This document shows positions 2,671 through 44,384 of a stretch of DNA of 64,000 nt, in pieces. The DNA comes from a virus. The first letter of the stretch is position 1. The number at the start of each line of letters is the position of its first letter. The stretch lies in IMG/VR virus record IMGVR_UViG_3300033402_000312. One strand, given 5' to 3'. Below the pieces are notes generated by a model that saw only the letters and a program-made list of their open reading frames with translations, had not been told where the DNA came from and did not search any database. The translations under genes were made by a program, and so were the position numbers.

Positions 2671-2764
2671 TAGGTTTGCCCTGAAGCGAATTCTGATTCG
2701 AGTGCTAATCAGCACGCTGGTAGCTGCCATCATACTCGTCATCGCCTTTTTTGGTGAAAAATGA
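2634..2764 (+). CDS. small membrane protein (43 aa), tentative
   Basis: The stop overlaps the next ATG (ATGA). Single TM helix (ILIRVLISTLVAAIILVIAFF). Confidence 0.25.
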
Positions 2765-3315
2765 AAAAGCAAACCGACAAGTTCGAAGGCATGCGCATCT
2801 ACGTGGTCGTGCCGGGAACGGTGCAGACCCCGATCAAGGTGGCCTACACGCCAAAGGAAAGCAGCATCTATTCCTTCGGGCGCTTCGATGACACCCGCGA
2901 CATCGTGCAGCCAGCCGGGCGGCAGGCGATGCAGGTCGGGCATGTGCGCGGCATGGTGGAGCACGAGCTTATCATGCAGGACTTGGTCAAGCTCATGGCG
3001 ATGAAGGTGCGTGTGGATAAGACCAGCGGCGTCGCCCAGACCGTTCCCAAGAAGAACCTGCGCAGCTTGCTCCCGTACCACGCCATCACGGGCATCGTGA
3101 AGTCGTGCCGCGACAGCTTCGAGCTTCTCCACGTCAAGAGCCTGCTGAAGAAGGCGAACATCCGGTACTTCGAGTTCCACGACACCCAGGAAACCCTGTA
3201 TGAGGACGTGGTGACTGCGCTCGCAACCGAGCCTGTGACCCCATTCGCAGTCGCCGGAATCCTCGACTACCTGCCCTTATGGGGAGCCGAATTCCCGATT
3301 GGGGGCAAGCAATGA
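2761..3315 (+). CDS. hypothetical protein, possibly PTH2-like peptidyl-tRNA hydrolase fold
   Basis: MRIYVVV...GRQAMQVGHV resembles the PTH2 core (MVLVVR...GKVAAQCSHA). The product call is weak; the ORF itself is solid. Confidence 0.55.
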   Translation: MKKQTDKFEGMRIYVVVPGTVQTPIKVAYTPKESSIYSFGRFDDTRDIVQPAGRQAMQVGHVRGMVEHELIMQDLVKLMAMKVRVDKTSGVAQTVPKKNLRSLLPYHAITGIVKSCRDSFELLHVKSLLKKANIRYFEFHDTQETLYEDVVTALATEPVTPFAVAGILDYLPLWGAEFPIGGKQ

Positions 3316-4058: not shown

Positions 4059-4310
4059 ATGCCGACACCCAACCCCACTGTTGAGCCGGATTATGTGGTT
4101 GCCGTCAGCAGCGACAACAAGGCTTTGCTCGCCCTGGATTCTTATTTGCGGAAGCAGTTCAAGATGCGCACGGAAATTCATCCTTGCGAACAAGGCTTCT
4201 TTTTGCTTTATCGCCCGCTCAGCGAAATCAACCGGGAGACATTGGCTGTCTTAATCTCCCGTTGCGATGGGTTTCTTGCCGGATTGTCGGCAAAGGAAGG
4301 TGCTCTGTGA
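4059..4310 (+). CDS. hypothetical protein
   Basis: ORF directly follows the previous stop. Coding-like composition. Confidence 0.5.
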   Translation: MPTPNPTVEPDYVVAVSSDNKALLALDSYLRKQFKMRTEIHPCEQGFFLLYRPLSEINRETLAVLISRCDGFLAGLSAKEGAL

Positions 4311-4738
4311 GCCGCCGCGCAGCAACATCGAACTTCGGTCGCAAACCCGGCTACTTTGAAAGGTTGAAGGCGGGCACGTCGCATCCGGTCTACGACCCGG
4401 ACACGGAAGGCTACGGCAACGTGACGGAATGGGTCTCGACGTTCAACGTGCGCATGGGCTTCGAGGAAGCGCAGAACCACAAGGCTTCGGGCACCAAGCG
4501 CCGTGAATGGAAATCCGATTGGGCGGTTCTCGGCGAGATCGCAGGAGTCCACCTTGACGAAAATTCCATGTGGGACGAGATCAAGAAGGCGTTCCGCAAG
4601 GCTGCGATGAACTGCCACCCCGACCGCGTGACGTCGCACGGCATGTCGAAGGAGCAGGCGGAAGAGACGTTCAAGGATGCCAGCGCCGCCTATGCGATGC
4701 TGGAAGACGTCTACAACGTGCAGGGGAGGCTCAAATAA
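4307..4738 (+). CDS. J-domain (DnaJ-like) protein
   Basis: Probable GTG start overlaps the previous stop (GTGA). IKKAFRKAAMNCHPDR carries the HPD tripeptide within a J-domain helix pattern. Confidence 0.7.
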   Translation: MSRRAATSNFGRKPGYFERLKAGTSHPVYDPDTEGYGNVTEWVSTFNVRMGFEEAQNHKASGTKRREWKSDWAVLGEIAGVHLDENSMWDEIKKAFRKAAMNCHPDRVTSHGMSKEQAEETFKDASAAYAMLEDVYNVQGRLK

Positions 4739-7673: not shown

Positions 7674-8123
7674 ATGAGAGCCGCGATCAACCCCGACTAC
7701 ACGTGGTACAGGCTCGCCCTTTTCAGGTCGAAGATTCACGGTCGCGGCGTGAAAGCGGTCGAGAACATACCGGCCCGAATGCCCGTCATCGAGCACACCG
7801 GGCTGCTGATAAACCGCAGGCGATACCGGAAGCTTGTCCTGAACGACAAAAGCAAGCACCAGCACCAGTACCTGTGGAACATAAACCCGTATTGGAGCAT
7901 GGACGGCGCGGTCGGGGGCAGCGGGGCGGAGTTCGTCAACCATTCCTGCGACCCGAACCTTGTCGCGCACATAATCGGCAAGCGCATCTACTACTACTCG
8001 CGCCGGGCGATCAAAAAGGGCGAGGAACTGACAATCGACTACCGTTTCGATGCCAGCGAAACCCCGGTGCCGTGCCGGTGCGGGTCTGAGAAGTGTCGTG
8101 GTACAATAAACATGAAAGGATGA
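7674..8123 (+). CDS. SET-domain protein (lysine methyltransferase-like)
   Basis: NHSCDPN and ELTIDY signatures, plus a Cys-rich post-SET segment (CRCGSEKCRG). Confidence 0.8.
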   Translation: MRAAINPDYTWYRLALFRSKIHGRGVKAVENIPARMPVIEHTGLLINRRRYRKLVLNDKSKHQHQYLWNINPYWSMDGAVGGSGAEFVNHSCDPNLVAHIIGKRIYYYSRRAIKKGEELTIDYRFDASETPVPCRCGSEKCRGTINMKG

Positions 8124-8124: not shown

Positions 8125-8340
8125 ATGGCTAGGAAGAAAAAAGCACGGAAGGCACAGATCGGCGATTGCGAGATGATGGTGTTCTGCCCGCAGTCGGAAA
8201 ACCCTCGCGGCGAGCGCGAATGCGGCGATCCGGGCGTGGCTGAGTGCCGGGAATGCGGCTTGCCGTTCTGCGGAGACCCTGACCACGGCAACGAGATCGA
8301 GGAGCTTTGCCGGGATTGCCGAGAGGGGGAGGAACAATGA
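8125..8340 (+). CDS. small Cys-rich protein
   Basis: Nine Cys in 71 aa. Confidence 0.5.
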   Translation: MARKKKARKAQIGDCEMMVFCPQSENPRGERECGDPGVAECRECGLPFCGDPDHGNEIEELCRDCREGEEQ

Positions 8341-9146
8341 ACCCGCATTTTCTATTTCCGATGTCGCTTCACCCGCACATAATCGATGAAGCATTCGAAG
8401 ACCAAGCCGTTGCCCTCAAGCAGAAAGGCTTCGAGACGTCCGTCATCGACATCGACGACGGATGCATCACTCCGAAACCGAAGCCGGATGCGACCTGCGT
8501 GTACCGGGGCTGGATGATGAACCCCGAGGAATACATGCACTACACCGCAACGGTCGTCTTGAACAAGGCGACGCCGCTCACGTACATCGACCAATATCTT
8601 GCGGCGCACCACCTGCCGAACTGGTACCCGCTGCTCTCGCGGTGGACGCCGAACACAGAGGTTTTTCCGGTGTTCGAAGACAATCTTCGCACCGCGTCTG
8701 TCCCTTTGGAGGATTTCGTGCGCTCCCATATGTTGGGGCTGGGCTGGTCAAAGTTCCAGCTTAAGGACTATGTCAAGAGCCTCAAGACGGCAGGCGGCTC
8801 CGTGATCACCGCGCCGGAGGAGATCATCCCCACGCTGGAAAACATGGAAAAATACCGTGGAACCATCGAGGGGGGCGTCTGCGTCCGGCAATGGGAAAGC
8901 TTCATCCCAGGCAGCGAGACGCGCTACTTCGTGGTCAACGGCCGCTACTTCGGGCAGAACGCCGCCTTCGACACCCGGGCCATGCGCATCTTGGAAGCAA
9001 TCAAGGATTTGATACCCAGCCCGTTCTGGTCTGTGGACATCGCCCAGCGCACGGATGGGGAATTCCGCATCGTCGAGATCGGCGACGGACAGGTCAGCGA
9101 CCTGGTCGGGTGGACACCCGGAAGGTTCGCGGAGATTTGGCAATGA
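8337..9146 (+). CDS. ATP-grasp fold protein
   Basis: ATGA overlap at the start. RYFVVNGRYFG and FWSVDIAQRTDGEFRIVEIGDGQVSD resemble ATP-grasp C-terminal motifs. Confidence 0.55.
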   Translation: MNPHFLFPMSLHPHIIDEAFEDQAVALKQKGFETSVIDIDDGCITPKPKPDATCVYRGWMMNPEEYMHYTATVVLNKATPLTYIDQYLAAHHLPNWYPLLSRWTPNTEVFPVFEDNLRTASVPLEDFVRSHMLGLGWSKFQLKDYVKSLKTAGGSVITAPEEIIPTLENMEKYRGTIEGGVCVRQWESFIPGSETRYFVVNGRYFGQNAAFDTRAMRILEAIKDLIPSPFWSVDIAQRTDGEFRIVEIGDGQVSDLVGWTPGRFAEIWQ

Positions 9147-9448
9147 AAAAGAAAGCAAAGCGCCCCGACTACAAGGCGATGTTCAAGTGCGACACAGTCC
9201 GCATCGCGGAATTCCCCGGCAGGATGTTCCTCATCATCGGCTGGAAGCGAAACAGCAGTGGTGAATGGTTCAGGCTCAAGGACGGCGAGTATGAGCCTTT
9301 TGACTTCGACTACGTAGACGAGCAGGTCGTGGCTTCCGGGCGAAACGCAAAGGAACTCCTCAAGTCCGCTGAAGAACACAGGCGGGTTTCCAAGCTGACG
9401 CCGGAACAATACCTGCGGGAACTGGTCAAGAAGGGGAAGCATGGTTAA
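9143..9448 (+). CDS. hypothetical protein
   Basis: ATGA overlap with the previous stop. Confidence 0.5.
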   Translation: MKKKAKRPDYKAMFKCDTVRIAEFPGRMFLIIGWKRNSSGEWFRLKDGEYEPFDFDYVDEQVVASGRNAKELLKSAEEHRRVSKLTPEQYLRELVKKGKHG

Positions 9449-9905
9449 GAGACCCAGCATCGGAATAGGGGTGCTGCTCGTCCGCGACAAGAAAATTCTC
9501 TTGTCCATGAGGCGGAAGAAGTACGGCTACGGCACGCTGGCGCTGCCGGGCGGTCACGTCGAATGGATGGAAAATTTGAGGGACACCGCCGTGCGCGAAG
9601 TCCTCGAAGAGACGGGCATCCGGCTGAGCAGGCGCAGAGTCCGCAACCTCCACGCGTACAGCGAGGAAATCCACCCGAAGCTGGGCAAGCATTACATCAC
9701 GTTCTACCTGATCGCCAAGTGCCCAAGGGGCCAAGAGCCGAGGAACATAGAGCCGCACAAGCACGGCAAATGGGGCTGGTACGACCCGTTCGACCTGCCG
9801 AGGAGCACTTGGCGACCGACCAAGCGCCTGTGCTCGTCGGAACTGACGGGCGGCAGCGGCACGCTGATCCGGGCGTACATCAACGGGGAGGGAGCCGAGC
9901 TATGA
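9441..9905 (+). CDS. Nudix hydrolase
   Basis: Nudix box LPGGHVEWMENLRDTAVREVLEETG (Gx5Ex7REUxEExGU). Confidence 0.85.
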   Translation: MVKRPSIGIGVLLVRDKKILLSMRRKKYGYGTLALPGGHVEWMENLRDTAVREVLEETGIRLSRRRVRNLHAYSEEIHPKLGKHYITFYLIAKCPRGQEPRNIEPHKHGKWGWYDPFDLPRSTWRPTKRLCSSELTGGSGTLIRAYINGEGAEL

Positions 9906-10482: not shown

Positions 10483-11367
10483 GTGATCTACGCCGAACTG
10501 CTGCGCAACGCCTGCGACATGTGCTCCGGGGCGCAGTGCGCCCACGCCAACGCCCTCGTCCAGCGCCTCCTGCTCGACAACGGCTACGGCTGGCAGGAAA
10601 AGTACAACGGCGACCGCCGCGTCGTCGAAAAGACCACCGCGCCTAACGGCACCGTCCGAATCGTGGACTACAACCGCAGGGGCGACCGTGGCAAGGGCTT
10701 GTCGCCGGAGATCATCGCCGCCCTCAAAAAGCACCCCCTCTACCAGTTTGTCATCGACTGCGAGTTCGTCGGCAAGGGCATCCACGAATCAAAGCTGCAC
10801 GTATTCGACACGCTCCATCTTGGCGACCACAACGTCGTAAACGAAAAGTACCGCACGCGGCTGGACTACTTGCATGCGGCGCTTGACGGGTTCCACCCGC
10901 TGGTCGCCCCGGCTTACACGGCGTTCACCCCCGAGGAAAAGCTGGCGCTGTACGAGCGGCTCCAAGCGGAATTCGCCGAGGGCTTTGTGATGAAAGACCT
11001 GAATGCTCGGTACCGCGAGAGCAACAGGCAAGGCACGGCGCGGTGGAACTACAAATACAAGTTCGTCAAGACGCTCGACGCGGTCGTGATCGGCAACTCG
11101 ACAGAGCGCGACCCCAAAGGCGTACTCAGGAACAGCGTGCGCCTCGGGCTGTACATGCCGAACGGGATGCTGAAAGACATCTGCGGCGCGACGAAGAAGT
11201 CCTCGTTCGTGCTCAAGCCGGGCGACGTGGTCGAACTGGCGTACCTGTGCGGCACGATTTCCTTGGACGTGGTCGAGCCGCGCATCCTGCGGCCCCGCGA
11301 CGACAAGCGGCGACAGGACTGCACGATAGACCAAATCATCGTCAACAAGAACTGGAGAAAATCATGA
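10483..11367 (+). CDS. ATP-dependent DNA ligase (small phage type)
   Basis: Motif I KYNGDR, motif III FVIDCEFV, motif IV EGFVMKD, motif V KFVK. GTG start after GGAGGG is preferred over the listed TTG at 10459. Confidence 0.8.
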   Translation: MIYAELLRNACDMCSGAQCAHANALVQRLLLDNGYGWQEKYNGDRRVVEKTTAPNGTVRIVDYNRRGDRGKGLSPEIIAALKKHPLYQFVIDCEFVGKGIHESKLHVFDTLHLGDHNVVNEKYRTRLDYLHAALDGFHPLVAPAYTAFTPEEKLALYERLQAEFAEGFVMKDLNARYRESNRQGTARWNYKYKFVKTLDAVVIGNSTERDPKGVLRNSVRLGLYMPNGMLKDICGATKKSSFVLKPGDVVELAYLCGTISLDVVEPRILRPRDDKRRQDCTIDQIIVNKNWRKS

Positions 11368-14962: not shown

Positions 14963-15973
14963 ATGTCGGAACTGCTCAGCCGCGACCAGTTCCGCGAAGC
15001 CGTCTTCGCCAGAGACGGGCACAAATGCGTCCATTGCGGCAAGCCCGGCGTCGATGCGCACCATATCATCGAGCGCAGGCTGTTCCCGAACGGCGGCTAT
15101 TACCTCAACAACGGGGTGACGCTCTGTGCCGACTGCCATCTCGCAGCAGAAGCCACGCTGATCGACTGCTATCAGCTTAGAACGGACGCGGCTATCCTGG
15201 AGGTTGTCCTCCCAGAACACTTTTTCCCTGACGGCGTATACGACAAGTGGGGCGACCAAATCGCCGAAAACGGCATGCGCATGAAGGGCGAGCTTTTCGA
15301 GGAGGAGCCTGTCCAGAAGGTGCTCGCCCCGGTCATGCACTTGTTTACCGACCGGATCAAGTACCCGCGAACAATGCACCTGCCGTTCAGTCCCGGCTTG
15401 CAAAATGATGACCGTGTGCTAGCGAACGGCACAGCAGATTGGGAAGGCACGGAGGTTGTTATCACCGAGAAGCTCGACGGAGAAGGGACCACGATGTACA
15501 AAGACTATCTTCACGCCCGGTCGCTGGAGTTCGAGGCGCATCCGTCACGGGAGCATATCAAAGCTATTCACGCCCAGATTGCTTACGAAATTCCAGAAGG
15601 GTTTAGAATTTGTGGTGAAAACATGACAGCCAAGCATTCTATTAAATATACAGGGCTGCCATCGTACTTCAGGGTCTTCAACATCTGGAACAGGCTCACA
15701 TGCTTGTCTTGGGAAGAGACAAACGAGTGGTGTGCTTTGCTTAATCTTTGGACGGTGCCTGTGCTATACCAAGGCAAATACAGCGACGGGCTGTGCCAAG
15801 AGCTTTGTAGCAAACTTGACCCAGAGACACAAGAAGGTCTTGTGGTTCGTCCGACCCGTGCTTTCCACATGCGAGAATACTCGTCTGTCGTTGGTAAGTA
15901 TGTTCGCAAGGGACATGTGCAGACTACCGAGCACTGGCTTAGGCAAGCCATAGAATACAATCAGCTTGGATGA
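14963..15973 (+). CDS. HNH nuclease domain fused to ATP-dependent RNA ligase (Rnl-type nucleotidyltransferase)
   Basis: N-terminus: HKCVHCG...DAHHI...NNGVTLCADCH (HNH). C-terminus: motif I KLDGE, motif IV EGLVVRP, motif V KYVRKG. Confidence 0.75.
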   Translation: MSELLSRDQFREAVFARDGHKCVHCGKPGVDAHHIIERRLFPNGGYYLNNGVTLCADCHLAAEATLIDCYQLRTDAAILEVVLPEHFFPDGVYDKWGDQIAENGMRMKGELFEEEPVQKVLAPVMHLFTDRIKYPRTMHLPFSPGLQNDDRVLANGTADWEGTEVVITEKLDGEGTTMYKDYLHARSLEFEAHPSREHIKAIHAQIAYEIPEGFRICGENMTAKHSIKYTGLPSYFRVFNIWNRLTCLSWEETNEWCALLNLWTVPVLYQGKYSDGLCQELCSKLDPETQEGLVVRPTRAFHMREYSSVVGKYVRKGHVQTTEHWLRQAIEYNQLG

Positions 15974-16013: not shown

Positions 16014-16547
16014 ATGGTCTCAAATGCTTACAAACGCTACAAGGCAGCGGGATTGTGCCGACGATGCGGGAAACGTCCGTTACCGGGGAAAACAAGGTGC
16101 AAAAACTGCCATGCAGATCACCTTGCTTACACCAAAAAAGCAAAGGACGAAGCAATGGCTTCCGGGCTTTGCCGTTATTGCTGCGTGGTTCCACGGCTAC
16201 CCAACCGCAGCATGTGTTCGAAATGCTGCGAGCTTCATGCGACAAAACAGAAAAGAAACTACGATTTATGGCGTAACGCCTGCATCAAAGCTTACGGGGG
16301 ACGTTGCGTATGCTGTGGTCTCAGCAACAACAAATACCTGCAACTTGACCACAAGGAAAATGACGGCGCTGAACACAAACGGAAAATTTTTGGGCACTGT
16401 AGAGGGCGTAACATGTACCGCTGGGCTTACAAAAACAACTTCCCCGATCTCTTACAACTTCTCTGCGCGAACTGCCATCAAGCTAAAACGTTTCACGGAG
16501 AATGTACTACAGCCGATCACGCGGAGTTCAACGGATTGAAGAAATGA
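16014..16547 (+). CDS. HNH endonuclease with N-terminal zinc ribbons
   Basis: RBS GGAGAGGTGGAA then ATG at 16014. CVCCG...LQLDHKEND...LCANCH. Confidence 0.75.
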   Translation: MVSNAYKRYKAAGLCRRCGKRPLPGKTRCKNCHADHLAYTKKAKDEAMASGLCRYCCVVPRLPNRSMCSKCCELHATKQKRNYDLWRNACIKAYGGRCVCCGLSNNKYLQLDHKENDGAEHKRKIFGHCRGRNMYRWAYKNNFPDLLQLLCANCHQAKTFHGECTTADHAEFNGLKK

Positions 16548-22060: not shown

Positions 22061-23278
22061 TTGAGGGAAGGACTTGTGGGTTTCGGTAACGACAGCAGCG
22101 CAGCGAAGCGAGCGCCCTCAAGGACAGGTGCCCCGGTGAAGAGCGCAGTAAAAACCGCCCAGCTTGACCCGCATCGACGCAGCGACCAAGTGAAGGAGTT
22201 TTTGAATGCCATGCGCCGCCGCGTCGTGGGCCAAGACCCCGCGATTGAAAAGGTCGCGGAAATCTACCAGATGTTCCTCGCCGGATTGAACCCGCCCGGC
22301 CGCCCCGTGGGCAACCTTCTTTTCCTCGGCCCAACCGGGTCGGGCAAGACACGCGTGGTTGAGGCCACGGCGGAGGCGCTATTCGGCGACGCACGCGCTT
22401 GCATCAAAGTGGACTGCACGGAGTTCCAGCACTCGCATGAAATCGCCAAGCTGATCGGCTCTCCTCCGGGCTACCTCGGCCACCGGGAGACACATCCCGT
22501 GCTCACGCAGGAAGAACTGGCGAAATGGCACAAGGAAGACCTCAAGCTGTCCCTCCTGCTGTTCGACGAGATCGAAAAGTCCTCCGATGCGCTCTGGCAA
22601 CTTCTCCTCGGCATACTCGATAAGGCTACGCTCACGCTGGGAGACAACCGGCGCGTAGACCTGTCGCAAACCATCATCTTCCTGACATCCAACCTTGGGG
22701 CCGGGGAGATGCAGACTTTCCAGGAAGGCGGAGGCATCGGCTTCGGCGGTCCGGTCGTTGTGGTGGACGAAATGCTCGACCAGAAGATTCAGCGTACGGC
22801 AGCCGAGGCGGCAAAACGAAAGTTCACACCGGAATTCCTCAACCGCATAGACAAGACGGTGGTCTTCAGGACGCTGCGCGACGAACACCTCAGGAAAATC
22901 CTTGAGATCGAGCTTGGTCTTGTCCAAGGGCGCGTCCTGTACGCCGGGGGGACAACCAAAGGGTTCCTGATCAGCGTGGATCAGCAAGCAAAGGAAGCTT
23001 TGCTGCTGGAGGGCACCGATGCGAAGTACGGCGCTCGCCATCTAAAGCGTGCCATCGAAAGGAACATCGTGCACCCGCTGGCGAATCTCGTTGCCACAAA
23101 CCAAGTGACGCTGGGCGACGTCGTCCAGATCGGCTACGAGGGCGATCTTCCGGCTCACGGCGAAGCCCCAGTCACGGGGCAGTACACTTTCACAAAGAGG
23201 CAGGAAGGCGTTATACTTCCTACTGTGCTCCTTGAAGCCGAGGGGATCGTCGCACCTGGCAAAGCCGCAAAATTGTAA
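22061..23278 (+). CDS. Clp/Hsp100-family AAA+ ATPase (ClpB D2-like single module)
   Basis: RRVVGQDPAIEKV...LLFLGPTGSGKT (Walker A). LLLFDEIEK (Walker B and sensor). C-terminal small domain. Start may be TTG 22061 or GTG 22076. Confidence 0.8.
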   Translation: MREGLVGFGNDSSAAKRAPSRTGAPVKSAVKTAQLDPHRRSDQVKEFLNAMRRRVVGQDPAIEKVAEIYQMFLAGLNPPGRPVGNLLFLGPTGSGKTRVVEATAEALFGDARACIKVDCTEFQHSHEIAKLIGSPPGYLGHRETHPVLTQEELAKWHKEDLKLSLLLFDEIEKSSDALWQLLLGILDKATLTLGDNRRVDLSQTIIFLTSNLGAGEMQTFQEGGGIGFGGPVVVVDEMLDQKIQRTAAEAAKRKFTPEFLNRIDKTVVFRTLRDEHLRKILEIELGLVQGRVLYAGGTTKGFLISVDQQAKEALLLEGTDAKYGARHLKRAIERNIVHPLANLVATNQVTLGDVVQIGYEGDLPAHGEAPVTGQYTFTKRQEGVILPTVLLEAEGIVAPGKAAKL

Positions 23279-23315
23279 TTTGAACTTCCTGACCAAAAAA
23301 CAGCGCGGCAGGCTG

Positions 23316-23660
23316 ATGTCACGGATACGCTCCGTGTCCCGGCTGGAGCTTAGCGCACGCAGCGCAGCAGAGCGCCGAACCGGATGCAAACTCGTCCACG
23401 GCACGCGCAAGTCCGGTCTCCCCGGATCGCCGGACTACTACTCCAAGAAAAACAAGGTTGTTGTGTTTGTTCATGGTTGCTTTTGGCACGGGTGCCGTGA
23501 GCATTTCAAGCAACCACAGACCAACGCGGAATACTGGCACAAAAAAATCTCCCGCAACCGCCAGCACGACAGGGCTGTGCGCATCATGTACAAAAACCTC
23601 AGATGGCGAGTCGTGACCATCTGGGAGCACTCCTTAAAGCCAACAAAAGCAAAGACTTAG
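23316..23660 (+). CDS. vsr: Vsr-type (very short patch repair-like) endonuclease
   Basis: VVVFVHGCFWHGC...NAEYWHKKISRNRQHDRAV...WRVVTIWEH. Internal ATG 23316 was chosen because the upstream part overlaps the ATPase gene. Confidence 0.85.
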   Translation: MSRIRSVSRLELSARSAAERRTGCKLVHGTRKSGLPGSPDYYSKKNKVVVFVHGCFWHGCREHFKQPQTNAEYWHKKISRNRQHDRAVRIMYKNLRWRVVTIWEHSLKPTKAKT

Positions 23661-24043: not shown

Positions 24044-25225
24044 ATGAACAACGCCCACAACCGCGCCATGGCGCTGGCCAAGCTGCCCGGCGACGGAGCC
24101 TGCATCCTCATCAACGCCGTGTTCGGCGTCAACCCGAGGGCGTACCGCTGGTACGACGCCGTAAAGCAGCGCGACATCGCGCAGGTTCTCTACCAAGAAC
24201 TGGGCGAGAAGCGCGGCTGGTCGTTCCCCGACACCAAGAAGATCGCCGCCGCGACGCGCTGGCTCAACCTCTATTGGAGCGGCATCCCCTTGGACAGCCG
24301 CATCGGCATTACCCGCGAGGAGCGCCTTGACAAGTGGGGCTACGACATCCCCGACGACTTCGACGAGTTCTCGGAAAAGGAACTGAACAAGTTCGCCGAG
24401 GAAGCATATCGCCAAGGGATCGGCGGCGAAGCCGACCAGATTTACACCTTCCTTACCGAGCTTAAGCGCATCGTCAAAAAAGCTCCATGCAACCCCAAAG
24501 GCAAGGCAATCCTTCCAATGCGCGAGACGCTGCTGCTCTCCGCGTACACGCTGGGCTGCCGCATCTCCGACATGAAAGGCAAAACCGAGGATTTCTTCGA
24601 ATCCATCATCACGAAAAGCGCCTACGCCTTGAAGACGACCGATCCGCGCCGCGTTTGCATGGAGTACCTGATCAAGAACCAGACCGAGAACGGCAAGGTC
24701 GAGTGGCGCGTCTCCGGCAGCGAGCAGCTTACCGTGACGCTCATTTGCATGCGCGAATACTTCGACGGTCACGAGATTCGCGACGGCGAAATCAAGTGGG
24801 TCGATTGGGAGTCGCAGAATTACCACGGCTGGATGGTGGGCGGCTACCGCTGGAACGACAGGCTGGTCGCTGGCGCTCCGCGTCTGTCCGACGAGGAAGA
24901 CAAGCTCTTCAAGGCGAACGAGGAGTTCGAGAAAGTCCTGCGTGCCCAGCGACGCGCGGCTTTGGCACTGAAGGCTGAGGAAGCCGAGGAAGCCAAGCCT
25001 GAGAAGCCGGAAGAGAAGGTTACCGACAGCACCTCATTGGCTCGCTTGGACATGTCCAAGAAGACCTACAAGATCATCACCGAGAACGGCGGCGTCAAGA
25101 CGGTCGGCGAACTCCGCTCGCTGACGCAGGCGAAGCTGTTCAACATCAAAGGCGTCACCTCGAAGGTCTTCAACGAACTGAAAGATGTTCTTGGCGGCTA
25201 CGGGCTGACGTTCAGGAAATGGTAA
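24044..25225 (+). CDS. hypothetical protein with C-terminal RNA polymerase alpha-CTD-like HhH domain
   Basis: LDMSKKTYKIITENGGVKTVGELRSLTQAKLFNIKGVTSKVFNELKDVL resembles the alpha-CTD HhH. Confidence 0.55.
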   Translation: MNNAHNRAMALAKLPGDGACILINAVFGVNPRAYRWYDAVKQRDIAQVLYQELGEKRGWSFPDTKKIAAATRWLNLYWSGIPLDSRIGITREERLDKWGYDIPDDFDEFSEKELNKFAEEAYRQGIGGEADQIYTFLTELKRIVKKAPCNPKGKAILPMRETLLLSAYTLGCRISDMKGKTEDFFESIITKSAYALKTTDPRRVCMEYLIKNQTENGKVEWRVSGSEQLTVTLICMREYFDGHEIRDGEIKWVDWESQNYHGWMVGGYRWNDRLVAGAPRLSDEEDKLFKANEEFEKVLRAQRRAALALKAEEAEEAKPEKPEEKVTDSTSLARLDMSKKTYKIITENGGVKTVGELRSLTQAKLFNIKGVTSKVFNELKDVLGGYGLTFRKW

Positions 25226-25664
25226 CCGTCAATTTGTAAACAAGACCGGGGAGGGTTCCGCCCGACCAAGCGATCTTCCCCGCAACCTTCATGCCGTGGC
25301 GCTCGTAGAAGGCGCATGCCACGGCATTCGCTTCCCTGACCGAAAGGTAGAGGTCGCCCCCGGACGGCAGCACAACCTGGGCGACAAAGTCTTCAAACAC
25401 GACCGAGCCTTTGCCGTTGCCTTGGCTGCCGTTCACGATCTGGTGGAGCATGACGGCACCGGCAGGAATGTCAACCTCGCCCACGCGGGTGCGCTTCTTG
25501 TATTTCTGGAATGTGATCGCGACGCCGTCCTCATAGATGCACTGCCCCTCCTCGATGCGCTTCTTCAGCTTGTCTTGGCGGACGTGCCTGAGTTCCTCGT
25601 GCGCCTGCATGAGCCTGTGGATTTCCTTCAGGTCGGCCAGAGTCGCGTACCTCATTGTGCCCAT
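25212..25664 (-). CDS. GNAT acetyltransferase
   Basis: VREANAVACAFYERHGMK and a GNGKG motif. Confidence 0.6.
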   Translation of the reverse strand: MGTMRYATLADLKEIHRLMQAHEELRHVRQDKLKKRIEEGQCIYEDGVAITFQKYKKRTRVGEVDIPAGAVMLHQIVNGSQGNGKGSVVFEDFVAQVVLPSGGDLYLSVREANAVACAFYERHGMKVAGKIAWSGGTLPGLVYKLTVTIS

Positions 25665-26779
25665 TATTTCCTTTTGAACACGTAGATCGGCTCGTACTTG
25701 TGGGTGTCTGTTTGCTTCTTGCGGGTGCCCATCATGCGGCTGAGCGCGAGCTTGAGGGTCTCAACGTATTTCCAATCCTTCCGGTTGGCAAAGCGCAAGA
25801 ATTGGTCTTCCATCCCGCTGTAGGTGCCGACGTCCGCGATGTTGACCGCGAGGAAACCGTCCGGCTTAAGACAGTATTCGCAGTTGTCCAGCGTCGCGCC
25901 CATAAAACCTTCCAGCCAGGCTAAGCTGCTTGGAAATTTCTTGTAGCTTTGGGTCTCCTCGTCGGCATATTTCTCGCAGTCAAAATACGGCGGGCTGGTA
26001 AAGCACAAGTCCACGGTGTTCGGCGCAAGCTTGACATGCATCATCTCGCTTCCTAGCATGTGCAGGTCGGTTTCCAGACCGCGCTCCGGTACGATGCGCC
26101 TGATGTCGGCTTCCATCTGCCTCAGGCCAGCGAATGTCTTGGAGGCAGGGTCGCAGCCGATGTATTTGCGGACTTTCTTGGAGGCGACAGCACCGAGCAA
26201 GCGACCGCCCCAGCCCATGCTCATATCCCATGTGGTGCCGCCCTCCGGCAGCAGATGGTCATAGATCGCCGCCGCCGCTGTGGGGCGAAAATTGCTCACA
26301 GCCTGCGTCCCGGTGAATGAGCGGACGGATTTGCGGATGCCGCTGTTGGACATGTAAGCGCCGTACTTGAGGCGCTTCTCGATGACAGCCTTGAGCAGGG
26401 CGTCATCGTTCCATGTCTTCTCTACGGTGCGCATGCTGCCGCACTCGACGCTGATGTGGTGGGGATGATAAGACCAAGCGAGACCGAGGGCATACATGTT
26501 TTGCCCTATGATGCCGTCCTTGAGCAGACCTGAATAGTCGCGCTTGACAAGCATACGGAGCGTGCGCTCCTTTTGCGCCTCGGTCAGCACGTACTGCGGG
26601 TAGCCGGTGGCGCGGTAATGGTCGAACGCAGCCTGCTTGAATGCAGCCATGGCAGGCTCGTCGTAGGTGTCCCATACTTTCTTGTTGACGAAAATTTCGG
26701 GATGCGACAATCCACAGATTTCGCAAGGCTTGAGCGTGGGTGCCACAGCGATTTCACTCATCAAGAGTAATACTCCCAT
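25664..26779 (-). CDS. DNA methyltransferase (amino-MTase, SPPY motif)
   Basis: Motif I-like DMSMGWGGRLLGA comes before motif IV TSPPYFD. N-terminal Cys cluster. Confidence 0.65.
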   Translation of the reverse strand: MGVLLLMSEIAVAPTLKPCEICGLSHPEIFVNKKVWDTYDEPAMAAFKQAAFDHYRATGYPQYVLTEAQKERTLRMLVKRDYSGLLKDGIIGQNMYALGLAWSYHPHHISVECGSMRTVEKTWNDDALLKAVIEKRLKYGAYMSNSGIRKSVRSFTGTQAVSNFRPTAAAAIYDHLLPEGGTTWDMSMGWGGRLLGAVASKKVRKYIGCDPASKTFAGLRQMEADIRRIVPERGLETDLHMLGSEMMHVKLAPNTVDLCFTSPPYFDCEKYADEETQSYKKFPSSLAWLEGFMGATLDNCEYCLKPDGFLAVNIADVGTYSGMEDQFLRFANRKDWKYVETLKLALSRMMGTRKKQTDTHKYEPIYVFKRK

Positions 26780-29262: not shown

Positions 29263-29442
29263 TGACAAGGGGTGTGCCTCCAAAAATGTTCTGCCTTACT
29301 AATGAGGCAGGAAGCGGCTGCATCCGATAGATACTGCGCATTCTGGGACTTGCAGAATTGCCAGTGCTCGACTCTTGACCAAACTATCCGTTTCAAGGTA
29401 GAGGAGGGCTGTCTTGGCACGCGCCGGAATTCCAACAAAACC

Positions 29443-31002
29443 ATGAAATCCGTAACCGCAGACAAGCTGCCCAACATGCACTCCACGGAATTCAAGGGAA
29501 TCCCGCTCGTCGTCCAATGGCCTAAGGGGAGCACACGCGTCGGCGAGCGCGGCGACGGCACCCCGTTCAAGATCGAGATGAAGGCAGACTACGGCTACAT
29601 CCCCGCCACAGTTGACATCGATGCGGACGACCACCTTGACGTCTACATCGGCCCGCACAGGGATTCCGAGTACGCATACGTGCTGGAGCAGTTGCGGAGC
29701 GGGGCGTTCGACGAGTACAAGATCATGCTCGGCTACGAATCGCTGGAGGAGGCGGAACGCTCCTACCTCGACCACCTGCCCGAGGACATGCTTGGGGAAA
29801 TCTACGAGGTGCCGTTCGACGACCTTTTCGACGCGTACAAAAAGGAAGAGGTAAAGGGCAAAACGGACGAAGCGGAAATCCACGAGGAGCGTGCCGAAAA
29901 GCACAAGCAGGGCGACGAGAAGCTCTCTTTGATCGACGCTTTCGTCAAGCTGTACAAGCACGAGTTCGAGTACTTCGACAAGGTCGCCGACGAGGTGCAC
30001 GACCAGCTTTCCGAGGTGCTCCAGGAAGCGGGCATCCGCGCCATCGTGACCTACCGCGCCAAGAAGCCCCGCAAGCTCAAGGGAAAGCTCCTTGAGCGCA
30101 GCAAGGCAAAGAACTACCAGTCCTTCCAGGACATCTACGACGACATCGTAGACCTCGCCGGAGTCCGCGTGGCGCTGTACCTGCCCAACGACCGCGCCGC
30201 CGTGGGGCAACTCATCGAGCAGCGGTTCACCCTGATGCGGAAGCCCAAGAATTTCCCCGAAGACAAGGGACCGAAAGACAGCATAGGCTACGTCGCCACG
30301 CACTACCTCGTCAGGCTCAAGCCGGAAACCCTCCACAAGGACGAATACCAGTATGCAGACACAAACGTCGAGATTCAGATCGCGTCCGTGCTCATGCACG
30401 CGTGGGCCGAAGTCACCCACGACCTCCTCTACAAGCCCCAAAACGGCACCACCCTCACCCCCGAAGAAGTAGCGATGATCGACGACCTGAACCGGGTCGT
30501 GCAGGAAGGCGAGGCCGTCCTTGAGAGGCTTCAGCAGTCCGTCGAAAGCCGCAGCCATGAAGACCTGCGCTTCGAGCTTGCCGCTGCCCTGACCAGGCTG
30601 GCGAAAAGGCTGGAAACCCAGTCCAAGGGGCGGGCAATCCGCAGGATCACCGCCAGCGACGTCAGGGCTGTCGCCAAGCAAGCGGCGGGAGACCTTTACG
30701 CCTCGCTGATGCAGTGCATGAAAGACCTCGGCTGGAACTACGCGGAGAACGACAACTGGTCGGACCCCATCAAGCCGCAAGAGCAAATCCAAGTGTTCCG
30801 CGACGGCTGGCTGCACCGCGCATGGGACAAGATCAAGGGGAGCGGCAGCACGGCGCAGGAGCTTCAGGAATACCTTGGGAGGCACGGTTTGGGCGACGCC
30901 AAGCACCCGCACAGGCTGCCGAACCAGCCCCCGCTGCCGCCGCACGTGAGCTACCTGAGAGCCAAGCTCGCGCTGTGGAAGGCGTACAGCAAGTCGCTTT
31001 GA
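29443..31002 (+). CDS. RelA/SpoT-like nucleotidyltransferase (small alarmone synthetase-like) with large extensions
   Basis: DLAGVRVALYLPND...GYVATHYLVRL...TNVEIQIASVLMHAWAEVTHDLLYK matches the RelA_SpoT synthetase core. Internal ATG 29443 is used because the upstream part overlaps the divergent gene. Confidence 0.75.
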   Translation: MKSVTADKLPNMHSTEFKGIPLVVQWPKGSTRVGERGDGTPFKIEMKADYGYIPATVDIDADDHLDVYIGPHRDSEYAYVLEQLRSGAFDEYKIMLGYESLEEAERSYLDHLPEDMLGEIYEVPFDDLFDAYKKEEVKGKTDEAEIHEERAEKHKQGDEKLSLIDAFVKLYKHEFEYFDKVADEVHDQLSEVLQEAGIRAIVTYRAKKPRKLKGKLLERSKAKNYQSFQDIYDDIVDLAGVRVALYLPNDRAAVGQLIEQRFTLMRKPKNFPEDKGPKDSIGYVATHYLVRLKPETLHKDEYQYADTNVEIQIASVLMHAWAEVTHDLLYKPQNGTTLTPEEVAMIDDLNRVVQEGEAVLERLQQSVESRSHEDLRFELAAALTRLAKRLETQSKGRAIRRITASDVRAVAKQAAGDLYASLMQCMKDLGWNYAENDNWSDPIKPQEQIQVFRDGWLHRAWDKIKGSGSTAQELQEYLGRHGLGDAKHPHRLPNQPPLPPHVSYLRAKLALWKAYSKSL

Positions 31003-31080
31003 CCGATTTTTCCGAAAAAACGTTTACAAAATCCCTAAGCAGCGGGGAAGATAAAATCCCCTAAGCAAAATAAGGGATTG

Positions 31081-34000
31081 ATGAGCTTGCTGGACAAAAA
31101 GACGGCCAAGCAGTACGAAAACGCCAGTACGCAGATCAACGTGCCCCCGGAGGTCGCCGCCGAGATCGCCCGCATAGGGAAGAAACTGATCCCGGACGGG
31201 CACCTTGCAGGCGACGGCAGAGTTGAAGTTCTGCATGTCACAATAAAGTACGGCGTGCAGCCGAACGAACACGTCCTCCAGCAAGCCTTGGCTGGGCACA
31301 AATCCTTCGAGGTTGTGCTCGGAAAGACCACGATATTCCCCGAGGCGAGCACCGAAGCCACCCCGGTGGTGATCGAAGTCCACGGTCATGAGTTCGAGGC
31401 GCTCCACGAGACAGTCGCTGCTGTCATGGGCATCCTGCCCGACGACTTCCCTTACACCCCGCACATCACCATCGCCTACGTCAAGCAAAAAGAAGCGCAG
31501 CACTACGCCGGGAAGGACGACTTTGTCGGCATCGAGTTTGTCGCCGACGCCGTAACCCTGTCCATATTCGACGACGACAACCAGGTTGACGTCCCGCTGG
31601 CGAAAGCCGCCGCAGAGGCTATCTTAGGAGGGAGAAACACAAAAGCGTGGCTTCTTCCCAACGGTAGATTCCAGACATGGGAGTTTATCGAGCATCCTTT
31701 GGTAGAACCTGAGATGTCACCCGCCATCCGTGTTGGGCGAGGTCCCTCGGGGCATGCTTACGCCCAGATAACAGAACCGCCGACTAACGCCCAGATGAGC
31801 GCCCTCGCAGACTTGGACAAGTTCGAAAAAGGATTATTCGTTGAGATCAAAGATAAAAACTCAGATACCGTGTATGAGGGCGTCCCCGTAAGGTTTTCTG
31901 AAATTCGTCATGCGGTGAACTCTGCTTTTCCCAAAACTGCCGCGTCCCCGGCTGTAATGCCCGAAATTCCCGAGGTTGTGCCGCAGGTTCCGCAGGAACA
32001 GCCTGAAGACGAGGAAGAGGTGCAGCGCGACGAGCCTGCCACGGGAGAGAAGCGGGAGGAACCGAAGCGCCAAAGGCAGCCGAAGAACAGGCTCCTCCGG
32101 CCGAAGCAGCCCAAGCAGAGGGCACCGAAACCCCCCGTCCAAACCACGAACTTCAAGAGGTGGTTCGGCAAATCCAAGGTGCGCGACGACAGCGGCAAGC
32201 CGCTGGTGGTCTACCATGGCACGACGCATGATTTCGAGGCGTTCGACCCGAGCCAGGGCAACGTGGAGAACCACTACGGCAGGGCACTGTACTTCACGTC
32301 CTCCAAGACCGACTTGGCGGAAAACTACGCGACAGAGGCGGGGCCGGACATCACCCAACGCATCGAACTGACCGCCGAGCGCATCTTCAACGACTTGCAG
32401 GAGGAGTGGGACGAGGAGCACCCCGGCGAGGAGTTCCCGCCATACAGTTCGGACGAATACCAAAAGTTAATGGAAGAAGCGAGGCAGCAGGCGAAAAAGC
32501 AAATCGCTGGGCAGAGCCAAGGCGTGAGCATGCCCGTCTACCTCAGCCTCCAGAACCCGGTCGTCGTGCAGAAGAACGGCGGCACCGGGTTCGAACTCAA
32601 CATCGACGAGGACGGCAACGAGTCCGGCAGCGCATTAACCCTGTACCACGCGATGTTGCGCGTGGCAGGAAACTATCACCATACTGATGCGCAAGAAATA
32701 TGGGTCGATCTCATCGAACATAACGGCGAGTCGTTCAATGCCTGGGATTTCGAGCGGCAAGTTCGCAACGCGGGACATTACGTTGAGGACGACGAAGGGA
32801 ACCTGGCAAGCGGCAGCTTCATCGCAGATGTTTACCGAGAGATGGGCTTCGACGGCATCATCCAAGACGCCTACGCCGAGTTTGGGGTCGGTCAATACGG
32901 CAGAATGAAGATGGAGCCGGGCACGAAGCACTACATCGTCTGGGACCCACGCAAGGTCAAGAGCGCCATCGGCAACGTGGGCAAGTTCGACCCGGCGAAC
33001 CCCAGCATCACGGCCGCGAGCAGGCAGTACCCCGCCACGGAAGAGTGGATCGGCAGGGCGAAGAAGTTCCTGAGGGAAAAGTGGGCGCAGCGCAACGACG
33101 AAATGGGGCGCGGAGAAATTCCAAGCAACCTTGAAGGCGCGTGCAAGTTCGCGTCGCTGTTCGCCAAGGAGCTTTTCGGCGGCAGGATCGTCGGCAACCC
33201 CGAACACCAAGTTGTCCAGCACGTGTACCAGATCATCGACTTGACCGACCGATACGACCCGAATACGTTCCGCCACGACAAGGAATGGTTCGGGAACCCC
33301 GAGCATCAGGAATCCATGCAGTCTTGCATGCCCCGCGTGAAACAGTGGGCAGAGGAGTTCAGGCAAAAGCACCCGCTTGAGTCCGAGACCGATGCTAAAC
33401 TCGCAAGCGACTACCACCGAAATGTCGGCTGGCTCCTGCATGACGGCAGCTTCAAGCCCCTAATCAAAGGCGAGAGCCACCGCGAGGGGGCTGTGCGCCT
33501 CGGGCTTTCAACCGACCCGCAGGACATGACCGAGGCTTTCGACAAGGGGGCCGTGCGGGTCAGCGGGAACCAGTATACGAGCCTTGAGTTCAAGATGCTG
33601 TCGCCGAACATCGCTTCCCTGCTCCTGGACTTCATCCTACAAAAACGCAGCGACGCAAAGACAATCACCTTCGACTGGTTCAGGCCGCGACGGGCAGAGC
33701 AGGAATTCAACAGCGTGGACGACGCCGTCGAGTGGCTGGACAACCCGTTCGCCGTGATGGCTTCCGCCAAATCCGCCGCTGGCTTTAACAAGCGCGTTAT
33801 CAGCATCGACGACCTTCCGGGGGAGGCGAAAGCCGACTTGGCGGCGGAGATCGCCGAGCATCTGACCGCCATCGGATTCCAGCCCCCGTGGCAGGAGAGC
33901 GGGGCGGTGGAGGCCAACGACCTGCGCCCGGAACTGTTCGACCTCGCCGACCCGCCGCTGGTCACGGTGTACGACGCCCCGGTCGAAAGCCTGCACAAGA

Positions 34001-42036: not shown

Positions 42037-42906
42037 ATGCAGCAAATAGACTTTACCGTACCTAAGTGTATGCTATTACATAACATCTATGTTCTTACTG
42101 ATCCTTTGGAACCCGACCATATTCGATATGTGGGATACAGCCGACACTTGCCTGAAACTCGCTTGAGGCGACATATCATTGAAGCCCGGTCGTCGCATAA
42201 GGATTCTCGCACTTACAAGAATACTTGGGTTCGTAAATTGCTTAGGGAAAATCGCATACCCACAGCGCTTTGGATTGAAGCTACTAGCGATCCTGACGAA
42301 GCTGAGAAACGCTGGATACAAAAACTCAAGGCGGAGGGACATTCCTTGACAAACGGAACAGATGGTGGGATAGGCGGACCTCCGGGTGTTCACCGGGGGC
42401 ACAAACACTCGGAGGAAACCAAGCTACGTTGGAGCCAAAAGAGGCGTGATGGTGTCAGAAAAACTTCATCCATTTTGAAAGCCGCACAATCCAATTCAGG
42501 GCAAACAAGAACCGCAGAGCAAAAAACTCGCATCAGCGAAGGAAAGCGCAAAGCGTGGGCATTGAGAAAAGAAAAAGGACTGGACGCACATAGGAGAACT
42601 TACACAATCATCTTTCCCGATGGTCATTGTGAAGAAGTGTCCTCTTTGCATGAATGGTGTACACAGAACAAGATAAGCTATGACATGATGACCCGAGTTA
42701 CCGGGGGGAAATGCGAATCCTATCACGGCTACGCCTGCGAAACCCATAACGGGGATCGAGCACAAAAGATAGCTGCCTTTATTGTGGCTAACCCAAAAAT
42801 CAGCTACAAAAAAATAGCAACACACTTTTCCACAACCAAACCGACAGTTCTGTCTGTCGTGCGCAAGTACAACTTGTATCGCAAACAGAGACAGCCAAAT
42901 GTCTAG
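42037..42906 (+). CDS. GIY-YIG homing endonuclease (Seg/I-Tev-like) with NUMOD3-like repeats
   Basis: NIYVLTDP...IRYVGYS...RLRRH (GIY-YIG). HSEETKLRWSQKRRDG and TAEQKTRISEGKRKAW (NUMOD3-like). The ATG immediately follows the giant ORF stop (TAGATG). Confidence 0.8.
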   Translation: MQQIDFTVPKCMLLHNIYVLTDPLEPDHIRYVGYSRHLPETRLRRHIIEARSSHKDSRTYKNTWVRKLLRENRIPTALWIEATSDPDEAEKRWIQKLKAEGHSLTNGTDGGIGGPPGVHRGHKHSEETKLRWSQKRRDGVRKTSSILKAAQSNSGQTRTAEQKTRISEGKRKAWALRKEKGLDAHRRTYTIIFPDGHCEEVSSLHEWCTQNKISYDMMTRVTGGKCESYHGYACETHNGDRAQKIAAFIVANPKISYKKIATHFSTTKPTVLSVVRKYNLYRKQRQPNV

Positions 42907-44383: not shown

Positions 44384-44384
44384 A

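Follow-up and report, generated by a model that had tools for sequence, protein, structure and literature searches.

Does a viral gene that joins a nuclease to a ligase serve the repair of broken RNA, and does the DNA around it supply the rest of a repair toolkit? The question is raised by 64,000 nt of virus record IMGVR_UViG_3300033402_000312 (IMG/VR; one strand, hereafter the window). In this window, an original prediction had called one open reading frame (ORF) that fuses an HNH nuclease in frame to an Rnl-type ligase, and had grouped it with a 2H phosphoesterase domain, Tpt1/KptA-like modules, a possible PTH2-like hydrolase and a separate DNA ligase. The gene, hereafter HNH-Rnl, and its parts are:

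14963..15973, + strand: HNH-Rnl gene from the ORF list, with an ATG start, 336 amino acids and a stop codon
14963..15157, + strand: zinc-HNH (beta-beta-alpha-Me) nuclease core, residues 1-65
15158..15346, + strand: HNH-module extension (residues 66-128), conserved and bearing the invariant DKWG motif at residues 94-97 (nt 15242-15253)
15347..15970, + strand: minimal Rnl2-like ATP-dependent RNA-ligase nucleotidyltransferase domain, residues 129-336

The in-frame fusion was confirmed: a single ORF occupies exactly 14963..15973, starts 1 nt past the stop of the preceding gene and matches Pfam and PHROG profiles in both modules. An assembly or sequencing artefact joining two separate genes, the outcome that would have undone the prediction, is ruled out because five independent contigs from separate assemblies (Logan SRR9711196 and SRR9711195; JGI 3300033405; ENA ERZ27256913) encode an identical protein, a large protein database search returned 3,515 homologs, with the same HNH and ligase architecture in >3,500, and an archaeal-virus homolog at 36% identity retains the catalytic residues of both modules. 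The fusion is not novel, being present already in PHROGs and in the literature. Iyer et al. 2021 (PMC7824862), citing Burroughs & Aravind 2016, noted HNH-ligase fusions in jumbo phages and assigned them to the Rnl2 family among the RNA-repair ligases of phages; the fusion is also annotated in phages CcrSC, ME3 and HGTV-1. These relatives (PHROG 24030; Caulobacter phage CcrSC gp219, Acinetobacter phage ME3 gp200 and Halovirus HGTV-1 gp233) have the same length and full-length architecture at 36-53% identity and have all catalytic residues and the DKWG linker in common with the window protein, which differs in sequence alone. Against the phage collection, megablast of a 22-kb part of the window gave no DNA-level match, and the best protein identity of HNH-Rnl to any entry was at most 53%. 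The gene is an ordinary member of a widespread HNH-Rnl family of jumbo and huge phages.

All of the HNH and ligase motifs originally quoted were located in the 336-aa protein. CVHCG (residues 22-26), HHI (33-35) and LCADCH (54-59) contain the zinc ligands C22, C25, C55 and C58, and the catalytic residues are H33/H34, N50 and H59. This places a catalytic histidine, a structural asparagine and a metal-binding histidine on a CxxC...CxxC zinc scaffold, as is characteristic of HNH (beta-beta-alpha-Me) nucleases, and Pfam HNH (PF01844) matches with an E value of 5e-7 (30.2 bits, cut-off 21.4). An AlphaFold2 model of the whole protein has a pLDDT of 89.8 and a pTM of 0.78, with values mostly of 83-96 for the extension (residues 66-128). 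Read from sequence, residues 1-128 form an autonomous metal-dependent zinc-HNH module with predicted nuclease activity. In the ligase domain, motif I is K170-L-D-G (nt 15470-15484; KLDGE, residues 170-174), motif Ia is R186, motif III is E219, motif IV is E291-G-x-V-x-R (nt 15833-15853; EGLVVRP, residues 291-297) and motif V is K312-x-V-R315 (nt 15896-15913; KYVRKG, residues 312-317). The KxDG lysine and motifs III, IV and V of covalent nucleotidyltransferases are conserved, motif V as a K-x-V-R variant of the usual K-x-K. Pfam RNA_ligase (PF09414) matches at profile positions 2-171 of 171 (E 1.4e-30, 107.2 bits, cut-off 27), and phrog_24030, annotated as 'RNA ligase', aligns residues 4-333 to profile positions 3-338 of 342 (E 6e-117). 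These matches lie well above what chance would produce.

In structural class, the ligase domain has its nearest fold match in the adenylyltransferase domain of T4 Rnl2, and it has motifs I, Ia, III, IIIa and IV and PF09414 in common with T4 Rnl2 (gp24.1) and trypanosome REL1. Unlike these enzymes, it carries KxDG rather than KxHG in motif I and K-x-V-R rather than K-x-K in motif V, has an N-terminal HNH module, and lacks the C-terminal helical domain of Rnl2 in the strict sense: the protein stops at residue 336, ~20 residues after motif V, and the secondary structure of the AlphaFold2 model has one short helix alone beyond that motif. There is no sequence-level match to ligases of the PDB, where searches with the single protein and with a 40-sequence profile retrieved IscB HNH domains only. 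The Rnl5 enzymes (Naegleria gruberi NgrRnl, Deinococcus DraRnl) are similar in having an N-terminal accessory domain, no C-terminal domain and a KxDG motif I, but their accessory domain has an OB-like fold, whereas the N-terminus of HNH-Rnl is an HNH nuclease and scores 10.6 bits against TIGR02306 (cut-off 151), outside Rnl5. The HNH module takes the place of the accessory C-terminal or OB domains that define Rnl2, Rnl3 and Rnl5.

One alternative is that the enzyme acts on DNA or RNA-DNA hybrids, nicking and resealing the phage genome or repairing DNA breaks with the DNA ligase encoded nearby:

10483..11367, + strand: small ATP-dependent DNA-ligase-like gene, 294 aa (Pfam DNA_ligase_A_M, E 6e-11; phrog_114)

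This gene bears out the separate DNA ligase called in the window and is also called in L001-L003. A DNA ligase gene recurs 0-7 kb from HNH-Rnl (the window, L007, L008, HGTV-1; about 15 viral loci), adjoining it in L008 with Ku nearby, and HNH enzymes are mostly DNases. However, this proximity may largely be inherited synteny among related huge phages, and with a separate DNA ligase already encoded a second would be redundant. The ligase domain of HNH-Rnl itself resembles RNA ligases more than DNA ligases and has no OB domain, which the latter require; a DNA-ligase identity was rejected. The partners of the gene elsewhere are RNA-repair enzymes. We regard action on DNA as very unlikely.

Across the family, catalytic residues are invariant in alignments of 40 and of 12 diverse homologs, archaeal virus HGTV-1 included, as are D94, K95 and W96 of the extension in both (A1, A2), and the HNH catalytic residues are nearly invariant across 367 homologs. 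A Bacteroidota clade (30/367) has lost the ligase active site while keeping the HNH residues, so ligase chemistry is not the invariant part of the family. The two modules also occur apart. BFVD holds a standalone 204-aa ligase and a standalone 139-aa HNH plus linker, locus L095 has a standalone HNH module between HD and PhoH genes, ligase-only homologs are found in XacN1, Atu_ph07 and Phosso, and locus L093 encodes a split version, with HNH and ligase as adjacent overlapping ORFs. Directly downstream of the fusion in the window lies a further nuclease gene:

16014..16547, + strand: free-standing HNH endonuclease gene (phrog_4234, E 2e-6)

It belongs to an HNH family other than that of HNH-Rnl, has GC contents by codon position of 0.49/0.44/0.51 versus about 0.57/0.41/0.78 in its neighbours, and has no counterpart downstream of the L007 homolog; it is probably mobile.

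Standalone modules and a mobile-looking nuclease gene next door are what would be expected if the two halves of HNH-Rnl worked independently, the ligase repairing RNA and the HNH module serving as a weapon aimed at the DNA of the host or of competing phages, or as a domesticated homing endonuclease. Such independence was suggested by Iyer et al. 2021 (PMC7824862), and in structure the HNH module is nearest to DNases, among them McrA and the GVE2 HNH endonuclease. Against it, fusion through an invariant linker persists across thousands of proteins of bacterial and archaeal viruses, which is unusual for selfish endonucleases; the two domains are predicted to take up a defined arrangement in the model (pTM 0.78); the split ORFs of L093 remain adjacent and overlapping; and the 128-aa HNH module is without an obvious domain for recognizing long DNA sites. 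We regard independent modules as unlikely.

The remainder of the proposed toolkit fared less well. No gene for a polynucleotide kinase, a phosphatase, RtcB, RlaP or a tRNA was found within the 64-kb window, and a complete repair toolkit in it is not supported. The 2H domain is located as follows:

31144..31569, + strand: 2H phosphoesterase domain, residues 23-164 of a 3,652-aa polyvalent protein (31078-42036)

Its presence at the N-terminus of the giant protein stands, with a PF13563 match (E 4e-11, 43.7 bits, cut-off 27), a weak Acb1 match (E 0.003) and the two HxT motifs of the 2H superfamily (HVTI at residue 53, HITI at residue 129); its role as a partner of the ligase is not supported, the domain being a polyvalent-protein module. 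Iyer et al. 2017 (PMC5512222) report that such 2H domains do not associate with RNA ligases, and propose that they act as RNases or as 2'-5' or cyclic-nucleotide phosphodiesterases. The modules described as Tpt1/KptA-like do carry YHGT motifs, seven in the window, and are part of two giant polyvalent proteins (the 2H/ART-bearing proteins, of 3,652 and 3,232 aa). They match ART-PolyVal (E 1e-20 and 6e-18) and PARP (E 2e-15), both of which outscore the Tpt1 profile on the same modules. With Tpt1 (PF01885), the alignment spans only ~30 residues (766-795; profile positions 99-127 of 177) at the HGT motif that the families share. E. coli KptA itself carries LYHGT, the YHGT motif being common to ART-superfamily modules and Tpt1, and a jackhmmer search seeded with KptA found no match among the window proteins or within <=8 kb of about 150 HNH-Rnl loci. 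Judged by the full two-lobe domain of Tpt1, which has an RNA-binding N-terminal lobe and catalytic Arg-His-Arg-Arg residues, the modules do not qualify, and a Tpt1 identity was rejected in favour of ART-PolyVal/PARP-type ADP-ribosyltransferase domains. The surrounding 'toolkit' of the window is largely a set of unrelated polyvalent-protein domains.

These results bear directly on the analogy drawn with fungal and plant tRNA ligases, in which a 2H cyclic phosphodiesterase (CPDase) would make a 2'-phosphate end, the ligase would seal and a Tpt1-like YHGT module would remove the 2'-phosphate. The window does contain a genuine 2H domain and the YHGT motif that Tpt1 has in common with ART modules, and a bacterial precedent exists in Runella, in a cluster of ligase, HD-Pnk and Tpt1 whose ligase adenylylates but sealed none of the standard substrates tried (PMC6097658). 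Yet the likeness of HNH-Rnl to Trl1 and Tpt1 is confined to the broad concept of mending cut tRNA by healing and sealing. Trl1 is a single chain with an Rnl1-type ligase, a kinase and a CPDase, and needs a 2'-phosphate; the window has no kinase and no Tpt1, its ligase is Rnl2-like rather than of Rnl1/Trl1 type, and its 2H domain, like its ART domains, sits in an unrelated giant protein, of a class whose 2H domains reportedly never accompany RNA ligases (PMC5512222). The Tpt1 part of the scheme is largely refuted, and we consider such a pathway as a whole extremely improbable.

Indications of RNA repair come from the neighbourhoods of homologs elsewhere. A T4-type Pnkp (AAA_33 plus HAD_PNKP, E 1e-49) is encoded 330 nt upstream of HNH-Rnl in locus L018, and RlaP 4 kb away on the same side. 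HD-Pnk is the next gene downstream in L114, with overlapping ORFs, and in L147, where it is followed by a bona fide PTH2. RtcB is directly upstream in L112, L123 and L128; RlaP, NADAR and P-loop kinases are found <=8 kb from HNH-Rnl in several of 71 viral loci; and HGTV-1 encodes a CCA-adding enzyme 3 kb downstream. Pnkp with HNH-Rnl in L018 and the HNH-Rnl/HD-Pnk overlap in L114 echo the heal-and-seal pairing of T4 Pnkp-Rnl1, bacterial Pnkp-Hen1 and the Runella cassettes, and the gene order of L114 is that described for Runella (PMC6097658). The window, by contrast with T4- and Runella-type cassettes, has no healing partner, and its ligase is of neither the Rnl1 nor the Rnl4 type. Most HNH-Rnl neighbourhoods are unconserved, with any one partner in a minority of loci: all-against-all clustering of neighbours from 72 viral loci yielded no strongly conserved partner, no repair genes adjoin the homolog in a Haliscomenobacter isolate genome, and the annotated neighbours in CcrSC, ME3, RsoM2USA and SCTP-2 are nearly all hypothetical proteins. 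In L114 and L154, the 285-286-aa genes that follow HD-Pnk were considered as a conserved third gene but proved mutually non-homologous. A repair role is plausible at the family level through gene linkage elsewhere (Pnkp, HD-Pnk, RtcB, RlaP, PTH2), and to this extent the original proposal survives, although not as a complete toolkit in the window.

The reading we favour, as probable though far from certain, is a two-module enzyme, an end-compatible nuclease plus RNA ligase, with a role in repairing broken RNA during infection. ATP would adenylylate K170, the AMP would be transferred to a 5'-phosphate RNA end, and attack by a 3'-OH end would seal the break. The two activities would be compatible because HNH cleavage leaves 3'-OH and 5'-phosphate, exactly the ends that the ligase requires. 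The RNA repaired would most likely be tRNA cut by host ribonuclease defences, with end-healing enzymes encoded by the host or by other parts of the phage genome. The architecture, the fold, the intact catalytic residues and the family-level linkage to RNA-repair genes are established, whereas the ligase activity, its substrates and the HNH target are inferred; our literature search found no biochemical study of any family member. Several observations count against this reading: HNH nucleases usually cut DNA, a small DNA ligase gene is found close by in related contigs and Ku in L008, motif V has the atypical K-x-V-R form, no solved ligase is matched by sequence, end-healing enzymes were not found in the window, each partner elsewhere occurs in a minority of loci, the Bacteroidota clade has lost its ligase site, and the Runella ligase sealed no standard substrate. 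In a bolder reading, which we think distinctly unlikely, the HNH module would trim damaged RNA ends (2',3'-cyclic phosphate, 5'-OH) to 3'-OH and 5'-phosphate and the ligase would then seal the same RNA, with RlaP refilling where needed. Such a cut-back-and-seal route would be independent of kinase and phosphatase, and the near-absolute conservation of HNH, even with a dead ligase, would then identify the nuclease as the central component. A requirement of the family for non-standard ends could possibly explain the failure of the Runella ligase on ordinary substrates, should that ligase belong to it.

Phage RNA ligases take part in the arms race against host defences based on ribonucleases, anticodon nucleases for example, and have been a source of standard laboratory enzymes. 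HNH-Rnl is very common in huge phages yet biochemically uncharacterised. The target of the HNH module, any cooperation of the two active sites and the ends accepted are the features that would set the family apart as another structural class of RNA ligase, in which a nuclease serves as the accessory domain; they could also bear on the unexplained bacterial ligase/HD-Pnk/Tpt1 cluster. For the window itself, the outcome is mostly corrective.

A further gene of the proposed set was supported by profile comparison:

2761..3315, + strand: divergent PTH2-like (peptidyl-tRNA hydrolase 2) gene

On its own, the ORF scores 15.9 bits against Pfam PF01981, below the cut-off of 23 (E 0.015), and a single-sequence AlphaFold2 model of the protein has a pLDDT of 37. 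Pfam PTH2 matches 4/4 members of its family, with a best E value of 7e-7, and hhalign comparison with bona fide PTH2 gives 96.2% probability (E 2e-9), in keeping with the possible PTH2-like hydrolase first suggested. The product is possibly a translation-rescue partner; bona fide PTH2 genes or syntenic homologs also lie near HNH-Rnl in L147, L143, L007, L008 and L014.

The HNH-Rnl gene lies exactly where the original prediction placed it. Its ATG start lies 1 nt beyond the stop codon of the preceding gene, and it is part of a long, tightly packed, co-directional gene block whose GC content by codon position is like that of real genes of the window. The features considered here are:

2761-3315, + strand, PTH2-like gene (hhalign and Pfam family matches)
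10483-11367, + strand, small DNA ligase gene (confirmed)
14963..15973, + strand, HNH-Rnl ORF (ATG start, 336 aa)
31078-42036, + strand, giant polyvalent protein 1 (3,652 aa)
44283-53981, + strand, second giant polyvalent protein (3,232 aa)

Every nuclease and ligase motif originally quoted is found in HNH-Rnl, and profile searches score far above chance: residues 22-62 match Pfam HNH (E 5e-7), residues 164-314 match Pfam RNA_ligase PF09414 (E 1.4e-30), and PHROG 24030 ‘RNA ligase’ aligns end-to-end (residues 4-333 with profile positions 3-338 of 342, E 6e-117). The fusion is real and not an artefact, since an identical protein occurs on five contigs from separately assembled samples and three sources, and full-length homologs occur in many genomes. 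A large protein database holds 3,515 homologs, the best 120 of which are all full length. Cultured jumbo phages (Salicola SCTP-2, Caulobacter CcrSC and CcrBL9, Ralstonia RsoM2USA and Acinetobacter ME3) encode full-length homologs with 40-53% identity, as do metagenomic huge phages, and the archaeal virus HGTV-1 encodes one with 30% (tblastn) or 36% (alignment) identity, recorded as ‘RNA ligase / HNH endonuclease domain’. IMG/VR yielded 80 more loci, many on contigs of 200-494 kb, and bacterial and archaeal assemblies yielded 71, isolate chromosomes among them. The fusion was already known from Iyer et al. (PMC7824862), PHROGs and RefSeq carry the family, and the window protein is clearly a member of this described group; a literature search turned up no biochemical work on its members. 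The longest contig listed for the 90%-identity cluster of the exact window protein (P0001) is 894,233 bp, which would be exceptionally large if it belongs to a phage; the contigs retrieved reached only 50-200 kb.

Invariance was judged on two alignments, of 40 and 12 diverse members. In both, the HNH module retains zinc ligands C22, C25 and C55, catalytic H33/H34, N50 and H59, and a DKWG motif (94-97) in the segment that follows the HNH core, while the ligase domain starts with an invariant KYPxTxH motif and retains motifs I (K170-x-D-G), Ia (R186), III (E219), IV (E291-G-x-V-x-R) and V (K312-x-V-R315). AlphaFold2, run on the 40-sequence alignment, gives a confident model (pLDDT 89.8, pTM 0.78). 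Because the chain stops ~20 residues past motif V, it contains neither the C-terminal domain that defines strict Rnl2 nor the OB domain that defines strict Rnl5, and so falls outside both definitions. The NCBIfam Rnl5 model scores far under threshold, and no solved ligase was detectable by sequence, including profile searches. HNH-Rnl is therefore a minimal Rnl2-like nucleotidyltransferase with the nuclease as its sole accessory domain.

Across 367 aligned non-identical full-length homologs, the HNH residues are retained in 366-367, with the C58 position alternating with His, whereas 30 carry another residue (Q, L, H and others) in place of the ligase nucleophile K170 and have also lost E219, E291 and K312. 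The nuclease site, rather than the ligase site, is thus the constant feature of the family. The ligase-dead proteins (~300 aa) form one clade in the Bacteroidota (Saprospiraceae-like), and the Haliscomenobacter hydrossis member is annotated just as ‘HNH endonuclease’. Every HNH residue is retained in this clade (loci L153-L158, proteins P0185-P0211).

The N-terminal module (residues 1-128) is also an independent unit. A search with it recovered short proteins (90-212 aa) made of this module alone. In L095 the module occurs by itself, flanked by an HD protein and PhoH, and the surroundings contain no ligase. The best matches in a viral structure library were two single-module proteins, a ligase of 204 aa and an ‘endonuclease’ of 139 aa, the latter with 36% identity across the entire N-terminal module, and XacN1, Atu_ph07 and Phosso encode homologs with the ligase only. 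A 499.6-kb contig (L093, 5001-5998) carries a split version of the gene, a 145-aa HNH+linker ORF followed in a different frame by a 187-aa RNA_ligase ORF with a 4-nt overlap; this arrangement reflects either a frameshift or a naturally two-subunit enzyme. Beside these separate modules stands the reading that the two halves act independently, the HNH module being a DNA weapon or a domesticated homing enzyme; we consider this unlikely. A nick-and-seal role on DNA or a hybrid seems distinctly improbable; the genes that recur near HNH-Rnl, each checked with Pfam, serve RNA repair or translation rescue.

Neighbourhoods are mostly without conservation. Among 71 dereplicated viral loci, a minority have RlaP, NADAR, P-loop kinases, peptide deformylase or a second, Rnl5-like ligase within ≤8 kb. 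Several loci carry HNH-Rnl in operon-like RNA-repair cassettes: a T4-type Pnkp (AAA_33 + HAD_PNKP, E 1e-49) 330 nt upstream and RlaP 4 kb upstream (L018, 3288-9002); HD-Pnk (HD + AAA_33) directly downstream with overlapping ORFs (L114, 7992-10162); HD-Pnk directly downstream, then a bona fide PTH2 (L147, 7989-10787); and RtcB (L112, 6758-9020). Three Armatimonadales loci, L112 among them, have RtcB as the immediate upstream gene, HD-Pnk is also near several ligase-dead Saprospiraceae genes, and in HGTV-1 a CCA-adding enzyme is encoded 3 kb downstream. The best-supported reading, which we hold to be fairly probable, is that HNH-Rnl is a bifunctional RNA (tRNA) repair enzyme in phage-host conflict. 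The nuclease and ligase chemistries are compatible, since HNH enzymes cut to give 3'-OH and 5'-phosphate ends. The C-terminal domain would act as an ATP-dependent 3'-OH/5'-phosphate RNA ligase via K170-AMP, the N-terminal domain would be an active metal-dependent nuclease, and enzymes encoded elsewhere would heal the ends; no tRNA genes, polynucleotide kinase, phosphatase, RtcB, RlaP or NADAR were found in the 64-kb window.

L114 has the gene arrangement described for Runella slithyformis, in which the ligase ORF overlaps HD-Pnk. The Runella cluster comprises Tpt1, MTase-HIT, ligase and HD-Pnk, and its ligase forms enzyme-AMP yet sealed no 3'-OH/5'-phosphate substrate tried (PMC6097658). The main interest lies in the role of the invariant HNH site and in a possible link to this unexplained ligase.

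The remaining toolkit components fared unevenly. All seven YHGT motifs fall inside ART modules (ART-PolyVal and PARP-like) of the two giant ORFs, which also encode several GNAT domains and NUDIX, SprT-like and YunG-like domains. A Tpt1 profile aligned just ~30 residues of these modules, around the HGT motif, which is common to the whole ADP-ribosyltransferase superfamily. An iterative search started from E. coli KptA matched no window protein, nor did it recover a genuine Tpt1 from the regions up to 8 kb away from ~150 HNH-Rnl loci. The proposed Tpt1/KptA identity was therefore rejected. A genuine 2H domain is present (PF13563, two HxT motifs), but it forms the N-terminal module of polyvalent protein 1. 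The paper defining this class reports no case of its 2H domains associating with RNA ligases and suggests that they act as RNases or as 2'-5'/cyclic-nucleotide phosphodiesterases (PMC5512222), with which a weak Acb1 (anti-CBASS) match agrees. The fungal-type 2H/Tpt1 pathway first envisaged is very improbable. The call of a putative PTH2-like gene gained support, with 96.2% hhalign probability (E 2e-9) against bona fide PTH2, Pfam PTH2 matches in 4/4 family members, and syntenic homologs upstream of HNH-Rnl in related contigs. The small DNA ligase, too, recurs near HNH-Rnl in related contigs.

Several other genes accompany these features. A free-standing HNH endonuclease gene (phrog_4234; 16014-16547, +) directly 3' of HNH-Rnl has atypical codon-position GC (0.49/0.44/0.51, neighbours ~0.57/0.41/0.78), is missing downstream of the homolog in contig L007, and was probably acquired recently as a mobile endonuclease. 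A 3,341-aa protein akin to the giant polyvalent proteins lies near HNH-Rnl in L007. A GIY-YIG endonuclease gene (42037-42906, +; atypical GC, 0.49/0.44/0.47), which fits precisely into the space separating giant ORF 1 (end at 42036) from its downstream neighbour (42899), has the look of a mobile endonuclease that has entered the polyvalent-protein gene block. Just upstream of giant protein 1 is a 576-aa fusion of inorganic pyrophosphatase (InPase, PF18823) and RelA/SpoT nucleotide pyrophosphokinase (29272-31002, +). An upstream run of host-manipulation-type genes (7674-8123, 8307-9146, 9441-9905 and 4184-4738, all +) includes a SET-domain methyltransferase, an R2K-clade ATP-grasp enzyme, a NUDIX hydrolase and a DnaJ-domain protein. 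The window also encodes a ClpB-like AAA+ ATPase (22061-23278, +), a Vsr-like mismatch endonuclease (23232-23660, +), an RNA polymerase alpha C-terminal domain protein (24044-25225, +) and a DNA N6/N4 methylase (25664-26779, -); in related contigs the ClpB-like ATPase recurs ~4 kb downstream of HNH-Rnl.
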